From a phage: DNA of 64,000 nucleotides. The notes beneath the pieces are model-generated. The model saw nothing but the letters and a program-made list of their open reading frames with translations, had not been told where the DNA came from and searched no databases. The stretch's first letter is position 1. Each line of letters begins with the position of its first letter. The position numbers and the translations under genes are program-made. The stretch is from NCBI GenBank assembly GCA_028030915.1, contig GCA_028030915.1_4867.1; one strand, written 5' to 3'. Shown in pieces: positions 6,704-56,022 of this stretch.

Positions 6704-7003
6704 TTAGCGTTTTTTCAGTGGGAGTAACAGACGACGTTTATGCCAAACTTCGAAATGCACTTCTGCCCACTCGGTGACATGGTTGTCATCCTTAGGATTG
6801 ATGTTAGAAATGCTTTTGAAGCGGTTACGGTTACGTTCGTCGATTTCGATTTCCAGAACGCGTTGACCATCAGCACGTGTGGTCACGTTCAGGATTTTAC
6901 CAACCACGATCGGACTACCATCGGTATTCTTCTTCGTCGGGGTGGTGTAAATCTCAGGTTCGATACGAGAGGTTAAAGCGCGAGTCAGTAATTTGATTCT
7001 CAT
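6704..7003 (-). CDS. hypothetical protein (99 aa)
   Basis: ORF in track; start uncertain. Confidence 0.3.
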   Translation of the reverse strand: MRIKLLTRALTSRIEPEIYTTPTKKNTDGSPIVVGKILNVTTRADGQRVLEIEIDERNRNRFKSISNINPKDDNHVTEWAEVHFEVWHKRRLLLPLKKR

Positions 7004-7101
7004 CAGATGTTACCTTTTTGCAGTTCTCGTACATAAGGTTTGGGTGATACGTAAAAGACTTACTATGTAGCCCAATCCCTTATATATTCGAGGTTGATAG
7101 A

Positions 7102-25237: not shown

Positions 25238-25290
25238 GTTTGCCTTCTAATGAGAAAGTATTAGTCGTTCATATCCAAAAGGCCATGCGT

Positions 25291-25322
25291 AAAAAAGAAG
25301 AAATGGAACCCCGAAGGGTTCC
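25291..25322 (-). terminator. intrinsic terminator (GGAACCC-CGAA-GGGTTCC)
   Basis: Hairpin with GNRA-like loop, A-run upstream on the plus strand; downstream of the 25334..25960 gene. Confidence 0.45.
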
Positions 25323-32221: not shown

Positions 32222-32539
32222 TTAGTATACGACCAGCACGACGCAGTCATCGATAGCCAGATTCAGTAATGCGTAGTCGTTACTTAACCGCTGGTAACGC
32301 ATCCCTTTTTCAAACTGACTTAATTGTTCAGTCGGCATGGCGTATACCGCGCTTTGCACTACTCCCGTAAACAGTTCGTCGTAGAACTGGTCTACTTCCC
32401 CGACTTTGTAAAAGCGCATTCTTTGATTGTTAGCAAAGACGCTGTCTAGCTTCCCGTTACTGGCTTTCTGTAACGCAGTAAAGGCACTGTCTGCATCATT
32501 ACGCTCTAATGCACTTTTAATGGTTTGAAATAAAGACAT
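32222..32539 (-). CDS. hypothetical protein (105 aa)
   Basis: ORF in track. Confidence 0.4.
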   Translation of the reverse strand: MSLFQTIKSALERNDADSAFTALQKASNGKLDSVFANNQRMRFYKVGEVDQFYDELFTGVVQSAVYAMPTEQLSQFEKGMRYQRLSNDYALLNLAIDDCVVLVVY

Positions 32540-32725
32540 GGTACTGCACTCCTCGTTAGGTTAGAAGTCAAGGTCAACTACAAAAACAAAAAGGATGTCG
32601 GTATCCTACGGATACCTCCGTTTATGTTCGCATCCAATACATAAACCCCCTTACCCCCGTACACTCCTCGATTGTCAAACGATGAGATCGAAACGTAAAA
32701 AAGTGTAGTATGAGAGGAGGGTGGT

Positions 32726-33658
32726 ATGAATAAATCTAAGTCAGGGTTGCACATCTTCTCGATAGGTATCGTCGCGGAAGATAAACCTCGTGGTGCCACT
32801 CGAGTTAAAGTCATCCCTATCGAAGTTAACTTTATTAATCCTACAGCTGTCGATGCAACAGAGACACCTGTAGAGAAGCAACACAACAGTTTAAGTGGTA
32901 CTGACAACCTTACTGTAAAGCAAGGTAATGCCATCACTGCAAAATGGATGAAGTCCAACAGCAACCGGGTTAACCCTCCGGATGTGAAAAAAGAAGACTA
33001 CGTAAGAATCTGGCGTATCGGTGAAACCGATATGTACTTCTGGGAAGATTTAAACAACAGTAACGTTAAGCGACTGGAAGATGGGGTATACGCCTGGTCT
33101 GCTGACCCAGTAAACCAGATGGCCGATGACCTCTCTAACGCCTACGTACTGAATATCTCCCCGATGGATGGTCACGTTACTTTACGCACCAGTATGACTA
33201 ACGGCGAGAAAAATGCGTATCTATTTCAATTGAACACGCGCGATGGGTTTTTCCAGTTAGTAGATGACGAAGGGCGTAAGTTCTACCTTAACTCCCCAGA
33301 GGATGACTTAGGGTTTGAAAACGCCTGCCGATCGAAGGTTAATATCAATAAAGAGGACGCTTTCATTTATGCTAAACGTTCTATTAATCTCGAGACAAAA
33401 ACGATTAACGAGAAGTGCGAAACTCGCAACTCTACAGCGTCGAAAAACATGGCATGGACGACTGAAGACTGGAAGACCACATGCCCAACGAATCTATTTA
33501 CCGGTAACCTGGAAGTAGGTAAGGATTTCCTCTATAATGGCAAGGGTGAAGGTAAGGGTACATTCACAGTTACCGAATCGGTTATCGGTGGCATCACCTT
33601 TAGTCTTCACTTGCATACTGGCCATGGTCCGGGCAACGACACCAGTACACCGCACTAA
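32726..33658 (+). CDS. hypothetical protein (310 aa)
   Basis: Plus-strand ORF with GAGAGGAGGG RBS. Confidence 0.5.
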   Translation: MNKSKSGLHIFSIGIVAEDKPRGATRVKVIPIEVNFINPTAVDATETPVEKQHNSLSGTDNLTVKQGNAITAKWMKSNSNRVNPPDVKKEDYVRIWRIGETDMYFWEDLNNSNVKRLEDGVYAWSADPVNQMADDLSNAYVLNISPMDGHVTLRTSMTNGEKNAYLFQLNTRDGFFQLVDDEGRKFYLNSPEDDLGFENACRSKVNINKEDAFIYAKRSINLETKTINEKCETRNSTASKNMAWTTEDWKTTCPTNLFTGNLEVGKDFLYNGKGEGKGTFTVTESVIGGITFSLHLHTGHGPGNDTSTPH

Positions 33659-33865
33659 GTTATTTACGTGTGTGGGGTATAATGTGACAATAAACCCCTA
33701 ACTGTAACGATAACCCGAATCGCTTGTGCACAGTTAGCCACTTTTTTCGCACAAAAGCCGGTTTATTGTCAACTAATTTACGAGTCGGGGCAGTTAATAT
33801 GCCTCGAAGTACAAGTAGTTGAACATAGGGTTCTTCTGCTATCATTTGTTAATGGAGATAAGTAA

Positions 33866-34075
33866 ATGAGCATTCGTGAAATCACCGCAGGCAGCGACGT
33901 TTCTGGTCTGGTAGAAGCAGGCACCGTTCAGGTTTCTGGACTGAGCACCGTTACCGAAGTTACCGAAGCGCTGGCTAAGAAAGCCGAAGCTGAAGGCGGC
34001 GTAGCATTTAAAGTTACCGCTTGCGGCGGCAACAACAAAATGTTCGGCAACGCCATCTATTACGTAAACGCGTAA
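33866..34075 (+). CDS. small BhsA/YdgH-like (DUF1471-like) protein, no signal peptide (69 aa)
   Basis: VQVSGLSTVTEVTEALAKKAEAEGGVAFKVTACGGNNKMFGNAIYY resembles the DUF1471 pattern (S-G-ST-L-D...AKKA...GA-Y-I......GNN...G-A-IYK); GGAGA RBS; strong terminator follows. Confidence 0.5.
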   Translation: MSIREITAGSDVSGLVEAGTVQVSGLSTVTEVTEALAKKAEAEGGVAFKVTACGGNNKMFGNAIYYVNA

Positions 34076-34100
34076 TCGGCCTGCGGGCAAAAAAGATATA

Positions 34101-34146
34101 GGTACCCTACTCCCGTTGGGAGTAGGGTTTACCTTTTATTTTTTTC
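34101..34146. terminator. bidirectional intrinsic terminator (CCCTACTCCC-GTT-GGGAGTAGGG, then T-run)
   Basis: Inverted repeat between convergent genes 33866..34075 (+) and 34136..35398 (-). Confidence 0.6.
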
Positions 34147-35398
34147 GTGCTTTGTAGCGATGCATTTCAACAAATGGCTTACCCCAAGCCCCGAAAGGCC
34201 CGACGATTGCCTGCACGTCGTTTACCAAATTCTGGTTATACCAACGCGCGTTCCCCAACAAAAAGTTTTCCCGGTCGAAGAATGTGGTATTAAAGACCCA
34301 CTCCCCTTCTTCCCAGGTCGGCCAGTACCCTACACATTTACCAACACGGTTAAAGATAGGACCTAGCGTCTTCTTCCCATCTGGGTCAGTCGGGTCTTTT
34401 AAATAGAACCGGCCCCAGATAGCGTTGTGGCTTATTCCGTGAATCTCTTTTTCGAGATACGGGTTGTCTATCGTAAAGATAAACGAGGATTCGTGCGTCA
34501 GCAACGCTTTTAACGTTTCTGAGTTACGAATACGTTGAACGGACGTAGGCGTACTTAAATCACCTACACCGATGGCGTCCCAATCGTAATAGCGACGGGT
34601 TTCCAATACAATCTTCGCCACGCTAAGGTTTGGCAGACTCAGCATAATCGCACGGTCGCTGAAATAGCCCTGCGGCGGCAACCAATGCAGAATACCTCCG
34701 ATGACGAACCCAACGGTTTTCCCTGTAATGGAATCGGGTAAGGTCAACATTAACGAAGAATAGTAATCTCGCGTAGTATCGAGTTTGTTCATCGTTAAAC
34801 CGGATATGGGGTAGGTCTTTACTTTACCGATATTTGCCATCACCAGACAGCCAATGTCTGGCGTATTGGCACGCCGCACGATATTACCAGCGCCGGTTAA
34901 GCGAACGCCCACTGGGTCAGATTGGTGAGGTACCCACTGGCCGTTGATGTTGTACAGCACCCCAGTACGGTATTTCTCTTTCCACTCATCGTCGCAGACT
35001 ACAACAACGTCGTGTGCATCATCAGGATTGAAGTCCTGAGTGTAGTGGTACCCAGGAGGGCACAGGTGCGTTTCCACGGGCACATCTGCATTAATAGACT
35101 GGTAATGTGCCTCAACGAATTCGAGCTTCGGTAGGCCCTTCCCAAGCGTTGGAATCGCGATTCCTGACTTGGTGTTTAACCAATCTTGCAACGTGTCCGT
35201 ACGGTTTTGTAAATCAGCCAGGTGATACTGGCTATAGAAGGTATATTCAGCACCTAGTGCTTCTAGTCCTACTTCGAAAAAGTGGTAGTTAGCACAAAGG
35301 GTATTTAAGGGCTGCGTGACATCGATGGTTCCCCAAGTTCGGGTGTCTCGAGAGAAGCCAAAAGCGCTGTCGGCCCGCACTTGATAAGCAGTAGTCAC
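34136..35398 (-). CDS. hypothetical protein (420 aa), possibly structural
   Basis: Long ORF adjacent to, and divergent from, the fiber gene block. Confidence 0.5.
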   Translation of the reverse strand: MTTAYQVRADSAFGFSRDTRTWGTIDVTQPLNTLCANYHFFEVGLEALGAEYTFYSQYHLADLQNRTDTLQDWLNTKSGIAIPTLGKGLPKLEFVEAHYQSINADVPVETHLCPPGYHYTQDFNPDDAHDVVVVCDDEWKEKYRTGVLYNINGQWVPHQSDPVGVRLTGAGNIVRRANTPDIGCLVMANIGKVKTYPISGLTMNKLDTTRDYYSSLMLTLPDSITGKTVGFVIGGILHWLPPQGYFSDRAIMLSLPNLSVAKIVLETRRYYDWDAIGVGDLSTPTSVQRIRNSETLKALLTHESSFIFTIDNPYLEKEIHGISHNAIWGRFYLKDPTDPDGKKTLGPIFNRVGKCVGYWPTWEEGEWVFNTTFFDRENFLLGNARWYNQNLVNDVQAIVGPFGAWGKPFVEMHRYKARKK

Positions 35399-35465
35399 TG
35401 GCTGTTTCCTCTAAGGATTCGGGTCATAGTATGAACTCGACGCCCTCAGAGAAAAGGAGTGTAAA

Positions 35466-38400
35466 ATGGCTGTCGTCCCTGACCCGCACTATCAAGAACC
35501 GGGGAATATGCAGACCGGTGAAGCGGTAACGCCGATCGGTACTAAGTACCGGATGCTGTTCCCCGCACACGCCCCCTTTTATACCACATCCCTGGTGGTC
35601 AAGAGTGGCGGCAAGAAATTAACATTAGGTGATGATTACGTCATCACCCATGCGTACGTTACGGGCATGGCACGCACTGGCCATGTTTGTCATGGTGGTG
35701 TGTGGATTACCAACCCGAAATATCAGAGTGGCTTTACACTCGATTACCACGCAATTGGCATCGGTGAAGCCACCGCAGAAATGATCGCCGCAGAACGAGA
35801 AGCGAATAAAGATCGCTATCCCGTAGACTGCCAATGGGATAACGTTATTGGGGATTTATATTTCCCACCGGTCGATATTAAGTTCGATTGGGAAAACTGG
35901 CGTGGCGAATCCGAGTTGATGGAAGCCATTGTTGCGGTTGGTGCTAAGCTCGGTGAAGCGATCAGTCGTGTTGACCCGATTGCTCGTAACACGTTAGACC
36001 TTCAATATCGCGCCGGCGTCACGCTTATCACATCCGAGCAGTATGCGACGTACGACGGTACTGGCGGCTACACCTATAACGCGTCACGTCGTCGTTATTC
36101 GTTATCTTACCAGAACACGACATTCGATGCGTATTCGTTAGCGGCAAAATACCGTTTACCGAGCATTCCACCGGAAACAACGTTGAACCCAGGCGAGTTG
36201 ATCGATTGGATGCTCTGTTACGCAAACGGTGGGACAAGTATCCTGCGTCTTCAGTTGAAGCAACGCGCGATTTATCTTACCTTAACGACGGCGATTGGTT
36301 CTGGTTCGTCTAATTACAGCTATACGTTGACGACTGGCCTGACCGATACCGAGTTGGCGGGTGATATTGAGCTTAGCGTGGTCAGACGCGAAGGTAACGG
36401 CGTTTACGACATTACCGTTAAAACAAGCAAGCAAACCGTTAACTACAGCTTTAACGTTGACAACCCACCGAGCGAATTTGCACCAGGGTATCAGAAAACT
36501 GATGTCGCAAAATGGTTGAAGTTTAAATCGGGCGTCAACCTAAACTGGTGGGCAGGTGAGAACGATTACGTCCAGATTCGTTCATTACCAGGCGCACCGG
36601 CACCTGACGTTAACAACGACGTGTACCAGCTGCTGGTAAAATATCACCAGATTGTCGATAAGCTGTACCGTGATGCACCAGCACATACGCACGTGCCGCG
36701 CAAGGATAACCCACATCGCGATTCGTGGGGCGCAATCCGTGCTTTGGAGAATAACGGTATTGCTTCGGACGCGACACTGGTATACGGAAAAACGCAACCG
36801 CAGCTGACAGATTACGTTAACAATCTGTTGCCGAAACTGTCAACGCTGGCGAATAAGCTTTTACGTTTACCGGCGGCTGCACAGTCTATCAACGGCACTT
36901 TCGGTATGAAGCCTGGCCTGACTTCGATAACGTCAGCAGTGGGTACCGATGAGTCTGAAGGCGTGGGTGCACAATTCACGGTTGACCCGAGGGTTATCCG
37001 TTTTATTGGCCGCGATTCGCAAACCGTTAACGCCGGGAATAACCCGATTACATGGCAAGGTGGGGCTAACCAACTCATCCTTTATCCGGATTCCCGTGGA
37101 TTGGAGTTCAACGGTAAGAAACTATTGGACCCTACTACGGTCGGACCGTACCTGCCGGGTAACGAGTCAGGTGGTGATGGACTGTTTTACGGAACATCCA
37201 CAGCTACTGTAACCATTAACGGCAACGGTATTCAGTCTGTTCCGTTCATTTGTACTTTTGTTCCACCGGAGTCCGACGACCTTGGCCTGATGGCTGTCCG
37301 TTTGTTGGCTACTGAATTCGGTGATCGTGAGGACTTGGCCGCAACGCCGGCACTCATCAAGAAATTGGATCAGCAGTTTACGGGCAAGTTGGTTGCCGTT
37401 AAATCGTACATCAACGACATGCCACTGACGAGTTCTATTTACATCGATAAAACTAACTTCGGCTTATCGAACGTACAGAACATCCCAGATGTGCAATTGC
37501 CGATTTCCCCGCTCCAACGAGCTGAGCTGGACAAGTATGCAGTCGTCGGTCACACACACACTCCTGCTGCGCTCGGGATTAAGCGTGCAACAACGACGGA
37601 GTTCGGTTTAGTACAGTTCGGCACCGCGGTTGACGATGCCACGCTGGCATTAGACGGCGGTGAGGTCATCCGACAGGCGGACGCTATCACAGAGATAGAG
37701 AAGGTTGCGAAGACAGTCGACTCTGGTGCTTCAATCAACATTATTCGTTACGGTTTACCCGGCACGGATATCATTGAGAACGGCATCACTTACACCGACT
37801 GGATGGTTACTATTAAAGCGAACGATTATTTCGTTGGTCGCGAGTACAAAGTACCTCTCTCCACATTTAACTTGGCGGAGCTATTCCCAGCGACGCACGA
37901 AGATGCTGAGTTTGGCGTGTATGTTGACGCGGCGGGCGATGACGGCAAGTACATTATCTACGAAAATCCAAACACGGCAGAAACTGAGACGATGACCAAA
38001 ATAGGTTCCATCATCACCAGTGAAACCGGTGTGGTTTTTGTAGAAATCCGCAACGTGACGCGTTTAGGTGAGTTCCGTGAATTAGGCGAGCACATCGAGG
38101 ATGATAACGCCCATATTCGTCGGGGCATGACGCAAGCTGAATTCGGATTTACTTACGGTACGGGCGGGCCTGTGTGGTCCACGGGTGCACCGGGTACAAA
38201 ACGTATAGATGCCGATTGGCGTTACGCGCAGGCTAGCAGCTATACGCCTATGTTGAAAGCGGACTACGATCCGGCTGCTGATAAATGGACGTTTAAAACA
38301 ACCAGTTTATCTGTAACCGATTATCGTTTTGTCCACAACACATTCCCGATGTTCCAGAATAACGGCATTACCGCGACGTGGACACCTTTAACCGCAACAG

Positions 38401-49851: not shown

Positions 49852-49860
49852 CTTGTTTAC

Positions 49861-49905
49861 GAGCCGGACTATGTTTATGGACATAGTCCGCTCGTTCTAC
49901 TTTTT
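49861..49905 (+). terminator. intrinsic terminator/attenuator (CGGACTATGT...ACATAGTCCG, then T-run)
   Basis: 10-bp inverted repeat followed by CTACTTTTT, between the last fiber gene and the Cys-rich peptide genes. Confidence 0.45.
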
Positions 49906-55899: not shown

Positions 55900-56022
55900 G
55901 GTTGTTTCCTTATAGTAGGTTTGTGGTGCATACTAAATCGTTCTAAAAACAACATAGTGGGCTTAATATGACAGTAAAGTTGGCTGTTAAACGAGAAAGT
56001 TTTTACCACTGAAAGGTACTCT

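Follow-up and report, generated by a model that had tools for sequence, protein, structure and literature searches.

Identity of the gene and layout of the locus

We analysed a 64 000-nucleotide (nt) stretch of phage DNA (GenBank assembly GCA_028030915.1, contig GCA_028030915.1_4867.1), referred to at its full length as the window, with a focus on a short open reading frame (ORF) at 33866-34075 on the plus strand. The DNA around this ORF shows 95-99% identity to Salmonella phage SPN3US and ∼30 close relatives (Seoulvirus), and the ORF product matches SPN3US_0172 (gp172) with 100% amino acid identity. The Seoulvirus relatives of SPN3US are 240-kb phiKZ-like jumbo phages of the nucleus-forming kind. 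We found that gp172, a protein of 7 kDa, is a single DUF1471 (YdgH/BhsA/McbA-like) beta-alpha-beta-beta domain with no signal for export. The DUF1471 annotation predates the present analysis: the protein is a ‘DUF1471 domain-containing protein’ in RefSeq (NC_027402 / YP_009153466.1) and a ‘hypothetical protein’ in the original GenBank record. The features of the locus, in coordinates of the window, are as follows.

33866-34075, plus strand: gp172 coding sequence (SPN3US_0172 orthologue), 69 amino acids, ATG at 33866, TAA at 34073-34075
33863-33865, plus strand: in-frame TAA abutting the gp172 ATG, as read from the sequence
33854-33857, plus strand: Shine-Dalgarno GGAG with an 8-nt spacer to the ATG; GGAG/GAGG kept in orthologous loci
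33774-33801, plus strand: promoter-like unit 2, TAATTTACG at 33774-33782, 15 nt, TATG at 33798-33801; phiKZ-type layout
33663-33684, plus strand: promoter-like unit 1, just 3′ of the gp173 stop, TTTAC at 33663-67 and TATAATG at 33678-84; TTAC invariant
33721-33748, plus strand: near-invariant non-coding box, CGCTTG (33721-26)...GCCACTTTTTTC (33737-48, a 12-mer); in the leader here, mostly 5′ of an extra terminator in relatives
34089-34146, both strands: bidirectional intrinsic terminator common to convergent gp171; A-tract 34089-34094, stem 34104-34128, T-tract 34134-34146
32726-33658, plus strand: gp173 orthologue, baseplate/central spike (‘phiKZ-like membrane puncturing device’, baseplate assembly protein); upstream neighbour in all genomes inspected
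34136-35398, minus strand: gp171 orthologue, essential tail-associated protein, phiKZ gp130 homologue; convergent downstream neighbour

Domain, fold and N-terminus of gp172

A preliminary description of this DNA, made from its letters without database searches, had taken the ORF for a stand-alone DUF1471 gene carrying the conserved core (GGNN...G-A-IYY). The Pfam search bore this out: PF07338 (YdgH/BhsA/McbA-like) matched gp172 with 43.5 bits (E-value 3.3e-11; gathering cut-off 27 bits), residues 16-66 being aligned to positions 2-54 of the 55 positions of the hidden Markov model (HMM), and the core is found at residues 54-66. A phage protein family with no function assigned, phrog_8068, matched with E-value 3.1e-33 over residues 1-68 (profile positions 1-69 of 70). 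The NCBIfam equivalog models all scored far below their cut-offs, among them BhsA (NF047859) with 39.4 against 90, McbA (NF040473) with 40.9 against 110 and YbiJ with 29.6 against 110. Hence gp172 belongs to DUF1471 but is not an orthologue of any named Escherichia coli member. Orthologues are called ‘multiple stress resistance protein BhsA’ in the records KX397369/NC_031010 (Kwan), KX397373 (Stratton), MH426724/NC_048016 (Wellington) and MH221129 (SPAsTU); given 39.4 bits for gp172 versus the BhsA cut-off of 90, such labels in GenBank are over-annotation.

A sequence search of the PDB with gp172 gave weak matches only (E-values 0.17-0.35), and a fold search was therefore needed. The AlphaFold2 model built from an alignment of 40 sequences has a predicted local distance difference test (pLDDT) value of 88.6, with strands at residues 15-26, 47-54 and 59-68 and a helix at residues 29-42. 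The best Foldseek matches of the model in the PDB were SrfN (2jna/2ma8), the N- and C-domains of YdgH (4evu/2m2j) and YahO (2noc/2ma4). Against DUF1471 structures the Foldseek probability was 0.99-1.0 and the template modelling (TM) score 0.69-0.76; over the top matches including RcsF the TM score was 0.69-0.82. RcsF, together with dodecin-like proteins, was ranked after the solved DUF1471 structures.

The gene had also been described as starting directly with the domain, a claim that an upstream in-frame start adding a signal peptide would have overturned. The TAA at 33863-33865 lies in frame directly 5′ of the ATG and thus excludes any N-terminal extension. At the position of the Sec signal peptide of bacterial proteins gp172 has ∼10 hydrophilic residues (MSIREITAGS). 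The maximal Kyte-Doolittle hydropathy of a 10-residue segment within the first 30 amino acids is 1.24 in gp172 and 0.30-1.24 in 14 phage orthologues, to be compared with 2.15-2.73 in 30 bacterial homologues; the two ranges are separate, in agreement with a bare domain that has no leader. Cys53 occurs only in sequences of the SPN3US and pEa_SNUABM_29 types, and is Ala in other class A sequences (classes are defined below), including that of Caitlin.

Distribution, synteny and origin

A word-based search detected phage-like relatives of 66-70 amino acids only. An exhaustive profile search through 1.84 billion representatives gave 73 matches: at the top were signal-less proteins of 68-78 amino acids, followed by bacterial DUF1471 proteins of 78-88 amino acids whose alignment starts at residue 27-38, i.e. 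past the signal peptide. With tblastn we observed signal-less orthologues in 62 phage records, all of them from jumbo phages infecting Enterobacterales (Salmonella, Escherichia, Proteus, Erwinia, Cronobacter). In 14 out of 14 inspected genomes, which represent five genera (Seoulvirus, Erskinevirus, Machinavirus, Wellingtonvirus and Derbicusvirus), the gene is flanked by the gp173 and gp171 orthologues, with a 5′ non-coding gap of 207-310 nt. The corresponding junction of phiKZ (gp129-131), E. coli phage Goslar and Vibrio phage pVp-JHP1101, at which the gp171 homologue adjoins the spike or tail-tip gene, contains no gp172-like ORF. The gp172 gene is a clade-specific accessory gene at the convergent gp173/gp171 junction; it is not a recent acquisition, being fixed across the whole jumbo-phage clade.

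Outside the phages, gp172 comes closest to DUF1471 proteins from Salmonella, Klebsiella, Brenneria and Yersinia (∼45-52% identity, with 67-83% of the query aligned), all bearing signal peptides, which agrees with the earlier suggestion of a host-derived domain. In a neighbour-joining tree with the closest bacterial DUF1471 proteins, phage sequences formed one clade with 67% bootstrap support (89% if the long-branch Wellington paralogue is allowed to fall outside it). Since the gene is present at the junction in five genera and absent there from phiKZ, Goslar and the Vibrio relative, we infer, as the simplest history, a single old capture of an enterobacterial host gene by the ancestor of the clade, with probable loss of the signal peptide.

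In several SPFM records (LR5359xx; e.g. SPFM5, 7, 9, 10, 12, 14, 15) matches to the locus are broken into numerous short stretches, and the ORF of gp172 is apparently shortened to 61 amino acids; this shortening looks like the result of sequencing or assembly frameshifts rather than true gene loss. In Wellingtonvirus a tandem paralogue is situated directly 3′ of the mini-gene (Wellington gp189, L004 3787-4347; likewise L013 1802-2368). The product of 186 amino acids is a signal-less DUF1471 protein (Pfam score 29.7 bits) with an acidic low-complexity tail of ∼120 amino acids.

As to the neighbourhood, a further nearby gene, gp170, is a baseplate or fibre candidate. Pfam searches detected no domain in the genes neighbouring gp172, and PADLOC models of defence systems gave no match. 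The C-terminus of gp173 (33620-33655) reads ...SLHLHTGHGPGNDTSTPH, with an H-x-H motif that by eye resembles the metal-binding apex of contractile-tail spikes (no Pfam domain there); the motif fits the annotation of gp173 as a membrane-puncturing device.

Selection and exchange of alleles

The ratio of non-synonymous to synonymous substitution rates (dN/dS) of gp172 within allele classes is 0.09-0.23, indicating purifying selection. In >20 Seoulvirus genomes the protein is 100% identical, with flanking DNA differing by 2-5%. Nevertheless, the sequences fall into two sharply distinct classes of alleles: class A (SPN3US, pEa_SNUABM_29, Caitlin) and class B (phiEaH2, Asesino, SPAsTU, Machina, ChrisDB and others). 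Identity of gp172 between the classes is 42-49%, which is lower than for any pair of flanking proteins in these phages.

The distribution of gp172 classes contradicts the grouping of gp171 and gp173. Compared with the window, Caitlin has 78% identity in gp172, 60% in gp173 and 64% in gp171, and its flanking genes group with those of ChrisDB; SPAsTU has 42% identity in gp172 and 74% and 84% in the flanks, i.e. a phiEaH2-type allele in an SPN3US-like background. This contradiction indicates that the two alleles have been swapped between phages. Because the upstream region and terminator of Caitlin resemble those of ChrisDB, the exchanged segment would be essentially the coding sequence; the comparison indicates a cassette-like exchange of the gp172 coding sequence by itself. 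The swapped allele classes suggest that the target of gp172 lies at the phage-host interface.

Expression and its signals

The gp172 gene differs from its surroundings in codon usage. The fraction of E. coli-type optimal codons (Fop; the codon list comes from established E. coli knowledge) is 0.82, the highest among the 73 ORFs of the window (mean 0.51, standard deviation 0.076, z-score +4.1; gp160 has 0.63). In 13 out of 13 phages the Fop of the orthologue, 0.65-0.82, was above that of both neighbours, 0.50-0.57. The G+C content is 0.519 versus 0.481 in the window. The SPN3US group commented on gp172 ‘Unusually high abundance in cell’ (PMC7411985, Table S2); together with the rank by Fop this is in line with the high expression that the preliminary description had supposed. 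The gene has a ribosome binding site of its own, as was also supposed, and this strong site in combination with the highest usage of optimal codons in the window argues for a very high rate of translation. The 5′ untranslated region (UTR) and the leader of gp172 are not unusually stable (z-scores -0.47 and -1.35).

The strong bidirectional terminator seen at first reading downstream of the gene proved stable on both strands, with folding energy of -34.3 kcal/mol (z-score -5.3) on the plus strand and -28.4 kcal/mol (z-score -4.8) on the minus strand; its stem has 11 bp, 7 of them G-C. The terminator is kept in all loci with a convergent gp171, with compensatory changes of the stem in Machina and CR5. 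With its own ribosome binding site and a conserved terminator shared by both strands, gp172 makes a discrete unit.

The promoter proposed initially, at 33655-33683, did not find support. The perfect TATAAT hexamer (33678-33683) does exist, but a scan of 32500-35600 for sigma-70 promoters, defined by a -35 and a -10 hexamer 16-18 nt apart, found none; the -35 position for this hexamer reads CTAAGT (two out of six matches) and the hexamer itself varies in the relatives. We thus rejected a sigma-70 promoter at this place.

Promoter-like unit 2 offers another candidate. Infection by phiKZ is independent of the host RNA polymerase (PMC4666361); the middle promoters of this phage have the motif AAanTTACc centred near -24 and its late promoters have TATG, with G as +1 (PMC4666361). 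In unit 2 TAATTTACG matches the middle motif in six of the eight specified positions and is centred at -23, the predicted +1 being G33801 and the implied 5′ UTR having a length of 65 nt. The TTTAC and TATG elements are (nearly) invariant in 12 phages of the five genera, the remaining spacer being diverged. In the window the pattern TTTAC-N12-17-TATG occurs eight times versus 3.96 expected. Five copies, listed below, are intergenic (with an intergenic fraction of the window of 6.5%) and are oriented to gene starts.

7032-7055, minus strand: TTTAC-TATG copy
25270-25293, minus strand: TTTAC-TATG copy
33777-33801, plus strand: TTTAC-TATG copy within unit 2
49856-49879, plus strand: TTTAC-TATG copy
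55953-55978, minus strand: TTTAC-TATG copy

The phiKZ-type layout, the conservation in 12 loci and the excess of intergenic copies led us to propose 33774-33801 as a candidate promoter of gp172. The three ORFs of the window with the highest usage of optimal codons (gp172, the ORF at 6704-7003, and gp160, which encodes an abundant head protein) all have the TTTAC-TATG motif, and the motif may represent a general strong promoter of SPN3US-like phages.

A conserved non-coding block upstream of gp172

Between the spike gene and the candidate promoter of gp172 there is a conserved non-coding block, 33659-33773 (in orthologous loci, for example, L009 1229-1440 and L005 3268-3420), which contains promoter-like unit 1 (TTTAC...TAT(N)TG), the near-invariant box listed above and an inverted repeat (33685-96 / 33760-71). 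In most relatives the block carries a covarying hairpin followed by a T-run terminator, in which five out of seven pairs show compensatory changes; this terminator is lost in the SPN3US type. The block may encode a small RNA (110-190 nt) or serve as a regulatory leader. Rfam searches had no match in this region of the window or in four orthologous loci, RNAalifold supported the extra terminator hairpin alone and no further consensus fold, and in single-sequence folds the CGCTTG box paired with differing partners in different genera. The conserved upstream motifs GCCACTTTTTTC, TATRRTGTGACAA and AGTTANTATGCC were also considered as generic promoters and rejected; as none of them recurs in the window, they are locus-specific. 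In an exact-pattern scan of IMG/VR the box had 14 matches, nine arising by chance in unrelated contigs and five in jumbo-phage contigs that carry a DUF1471 gene as well.

Detection of gp172 in particle preparations

Published proteomic data on SPN3US show gp172 in some preparations. In wild-type virions from a caesium chloride (CsCl) step gradient Ali et al. (2017) detected it by 4 unique peptides and 6 spectra with 81% coverage; the spectrum count to mass ratio (SC/M), 0.86, was similar to those of portal and gp170, and gp172 was called the smallest virion protein. It was missing from 47(am1) particles in the same work. Reilly et al. (2020; PMC7411985, Table S2) listed, in peptide-spectrum matches (PSM), 13 for gp172 after differential centrifugation only, 6 and 3 in two samples from a CsCl step gradient, 0 in tailed virions purified by step and buoyant-density gradients, and 2 in tailless heads (gp171 and gp173 having 0). 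In three tail-/prohead-rich preparations of this series gp172 had 0 PSM, with 23-39 for gp171 and 3-27 for gp173, and it had 0 PSM in a debris-/flagella-rich CsCl lower band too (PMC7411985). There is no gp172 row in the 2016 SPN3US tables, nor in those of the 2023 triplicate runs on buoyant-density wild-type virions, though ‘non-virion’ proteins with 2-3 PSM appear there, and the protein is absent from three mutant virion preparations.

As purified virions are free of gp172, it is not a stoichiometric part of the virion; the PSM series looks like that of a soluble protein, abundant at first, which is progressively washed away. The absence from buoyant-density-purified virions and the lack of an export signal make the intracellular location supposed in the preliminary description probable.

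Proposed role and alternatives

With a probability of roughly 0.5, we propose that gp172 is an abundant small cytoplasmic protein, made from a phage-type promoter, that binds a host or phage target stoichiometrically. In this scheme a captured host DUF1471 gene would have lost its signal peptide; the phage RNA polymerase would transcribe it from a middle/late promoter of the phiKZ type (TTTAC near -24, TATG, +1 at G33801); the bidirectional terminator would insulate the unit, and translation would proceed at a very high rate. The product would remain soluble in the host cytoplasm and act stoichiometrically, its DUF1471 interaction scaffold engaging a host or phage target within the cell rather than serving in periplasmic stress response or in the virion.

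Several points weigh against this proposal. To our knowledge, the envelope is where every characterised DUF1471 protein acts, and a cytoplasmic target of gp172 is something that we purely infer. A function in virion structure or assembly would be compatible with a gene that lies in the baseplate module, on the strand of the spike gene. The promoter prediction relies on the analogy with phiKZ, and the high abundance comes from a one-line supplementary comment and from codon bias. Finally, gp172 is still listed as ‘Tail’ in one table of the SPN3US group, and Ali et al. (2017) cautioned that the low-mass region of the gel was possibly missed; in view of the latter, a weak or salt-labile association with the virion keeps a small probability.

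One could speculate further that the phages have made of an Enterobacterales-specific periplasmic domain a very abundant cytoplasmic ‘sponge’ or decoy, maybe oligomeric as dodecin-like proteins are, which sequesters a host molecule (an immune signal, a stress or envelope-signalling protein synthesised in the cytoplasm, or a defence effector) and serves nucleus-forming jumbo phages as a counter-defence or host-takeover factor. The two allele classes and the acidic-tailed Wellingtonvirus paralogue would then mirror an arms race. We regard this as unlikely.

Equally tentative is a role as a late factor acting at the envelope: gp172 would build up in the cytoplasm and gain contact with the periplasm or outer membrane only once holin lesions have formed or the cell lyses. 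By binding components of the envelope there, it could aid disruption of the outer membrane or mask receptors on debris and so protect progeny. The known DUF1471 relatives are periplasmic or associated with the outer membrane, the gp172 fold also resembles RcsF, a high stoichiometric abundance suits coating or masking, and the promoter layout fits middle/late expression. The top spectral count, 13 PSM, was obtained from a crude pellet with cell debris; against this stands the absence of gp172 from the debris-/flagella-rich CsCl lower band. Also, no lysis genes were identified adjoining gp172, and no DUF1471 protein is known for receptor binding or membrane disruption; the idea is speculative throughout.

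Delivery of gp172 by the virion or tail tip was the reading that we favoured at first from the data of Ali et al. (2017), and it was undermined by the purification series and triplicate runs of the same group. In this version gp172 is a low-copy tail-tip or baseplate protein, perhaps placed on the gp173 spike and brought into the periplasm by tail contraction, in which case a signal peptide is not needed. Detection in CsCl-step wild-type virions (4 unique peptides, 81% coverage), the ‘Tail’ listing by the authors, and a gene position flanked, throughout the relatives, by the spike gene on one side and an essential tail gene on the other all speak for it. The signal, however, drops as the stringency of purification rises, with none left in buoyant-density tailed virions, triplicate wild-type virions, three mutant preparations or tail-rich preparations, and the 2 PSM in tailless heads were found where gp171 and gp173 had 0. 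An extreme codon bias and high abundance in the cell are ill-suited to a component present in few copies, and the spike and gp171 are also present, without gp172, in phiKZ, Goslar and the Vibrio relative. We consider virion delivery doubtful.

Even less probable is that gp172 is a non-structural assembly chaperone, like T4 gp57A, for the baseplate, the spike or the giant fibre-like gp168-170. A small soluble protein encoded within a baseplate/fibre gene cluster, present in crude particle fractions with no stable place in the virion, would suit such a role. But the same three relatives with homologous spike and gp171 do not have it; alleles with 42-49% identity are swapped independently of the flanking structural genes, which is unexpected if a chaperone co-evolves with its clients; the fold has no known chaperone members; and, as a weak point, gp172 was not among essential genes recovered as amber mutants.

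The last possibility, that gp172 is a hitch-hiking piece of host DNA without function or that this short gene arose by mistaken annotation, the 82-amino-acid ORF on the opposite strand (33842-34090, minus) being the real gene, is effectively refuted: the antisense ORF was rejected since it is the plus strand that has the Pfam match, peptides with 81% coverage, codon bias (extreme codon optimisation) and purifying selection (dN/dS 0.09-0.23, invariance in >20 Seoulvirus genomes), in addition to a conserved candidate promoter and a conserved terminator.

Comparison with known systems and implications

DUF1471 proteins form a poorly understood family, restricted to Enterobacterales, with links to stress, biofilm and virulence. 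With the enterobacterial members (BhsA/YcfR, McbA/YbiM, YbiJ, YhcN, YahO, BsmA, SrfN, YdgH) gp172 shares the HMM-defined domain, the fold and the core G-x-N...G-A-x-x-Y; its size is that of the mature bacterial protein. The taxonomic range matches as well, the family being enterobacterial and the hosts of phages with gp172 all belonging to Enterobacterales. Unlike the bacterial proteins, gp172 has neither signal peptide nor lipobox, which argues that it is not exported, and is encoded in a lytic jumbo phage by a gene probably transcribed by a phage polymerase. A signal peptide or lipobox is a trait of the characterised bacterial members and not of the PF07338 model.

Like the morons of other phages, gp172 is host-derived, is inserted between genes that are adjacent in distant relatives, comes with a promoter-like element and a terminator, and has G+C content slightly above that of the window (0.519 vs 0.481). 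Morons in the classical sense reside in prophages and are expressed in lysogens, from promoters of the host type; gp172, in contrast, belongs to a strictly lytic phage, its promoter layout is of the phage type, and it is an old gene that is fixed in its clade.

A related beta-alpha-beta-beta fold (2jz7, probability 0.99; 3qkb, probability 0.93) is present in dodecin-like oligomers, i.e. dodecin, YbjQ/DUF74 and a Methanococcus selenium-binding protein; weak sequence matches of gp172 to the Methanococcus protein were observed too. These proteins are small, cytoplasmic and signal-less, as is gp172, but the sequence of gp172 is that of DUF1471, with no conserved Cys or ligand residues. By way of analogy only, canonical signal-less endolysins also lack an export signal and have relatives acting in the periplasm, and cytoplasmic accumulation such as theirs is proposed for gp172; unlike them, gp172 has no enzymatic domain.

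In the literature searched we saw no link of DUF1471 or BhsA to jumbo phages. The gene, its DUF1471 label (in databases) and its abundance (in a supplementary table) were already known; that literature describes neither the missing signal peptide and its loss nor conservation throughout the clade, and it is likewise silent on the codon signature, the exchange of alleles and the promoter model.

A whole clade of nucleus-forming jumbo phages has thus kept a bare DUF1471 domain stripped of its export signal, and among the small genes of the region the one that encodes it is, judged by codon usage, expressed most strongly. Two database habits are corrected, the name ‘BhsA’ and the tail-protein label for gp172, and a testable promoter model is provided for SPN3US-like phages. 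Finding the partner of gp172 could reveal what the DUF1471 scaffold binds, a question that concerns ∼10 paralogues in E. coli and Salmonella, and could show how the host is manipulated by phages relevant to therapy against Salmonella, Erwinia and Cronobacter.

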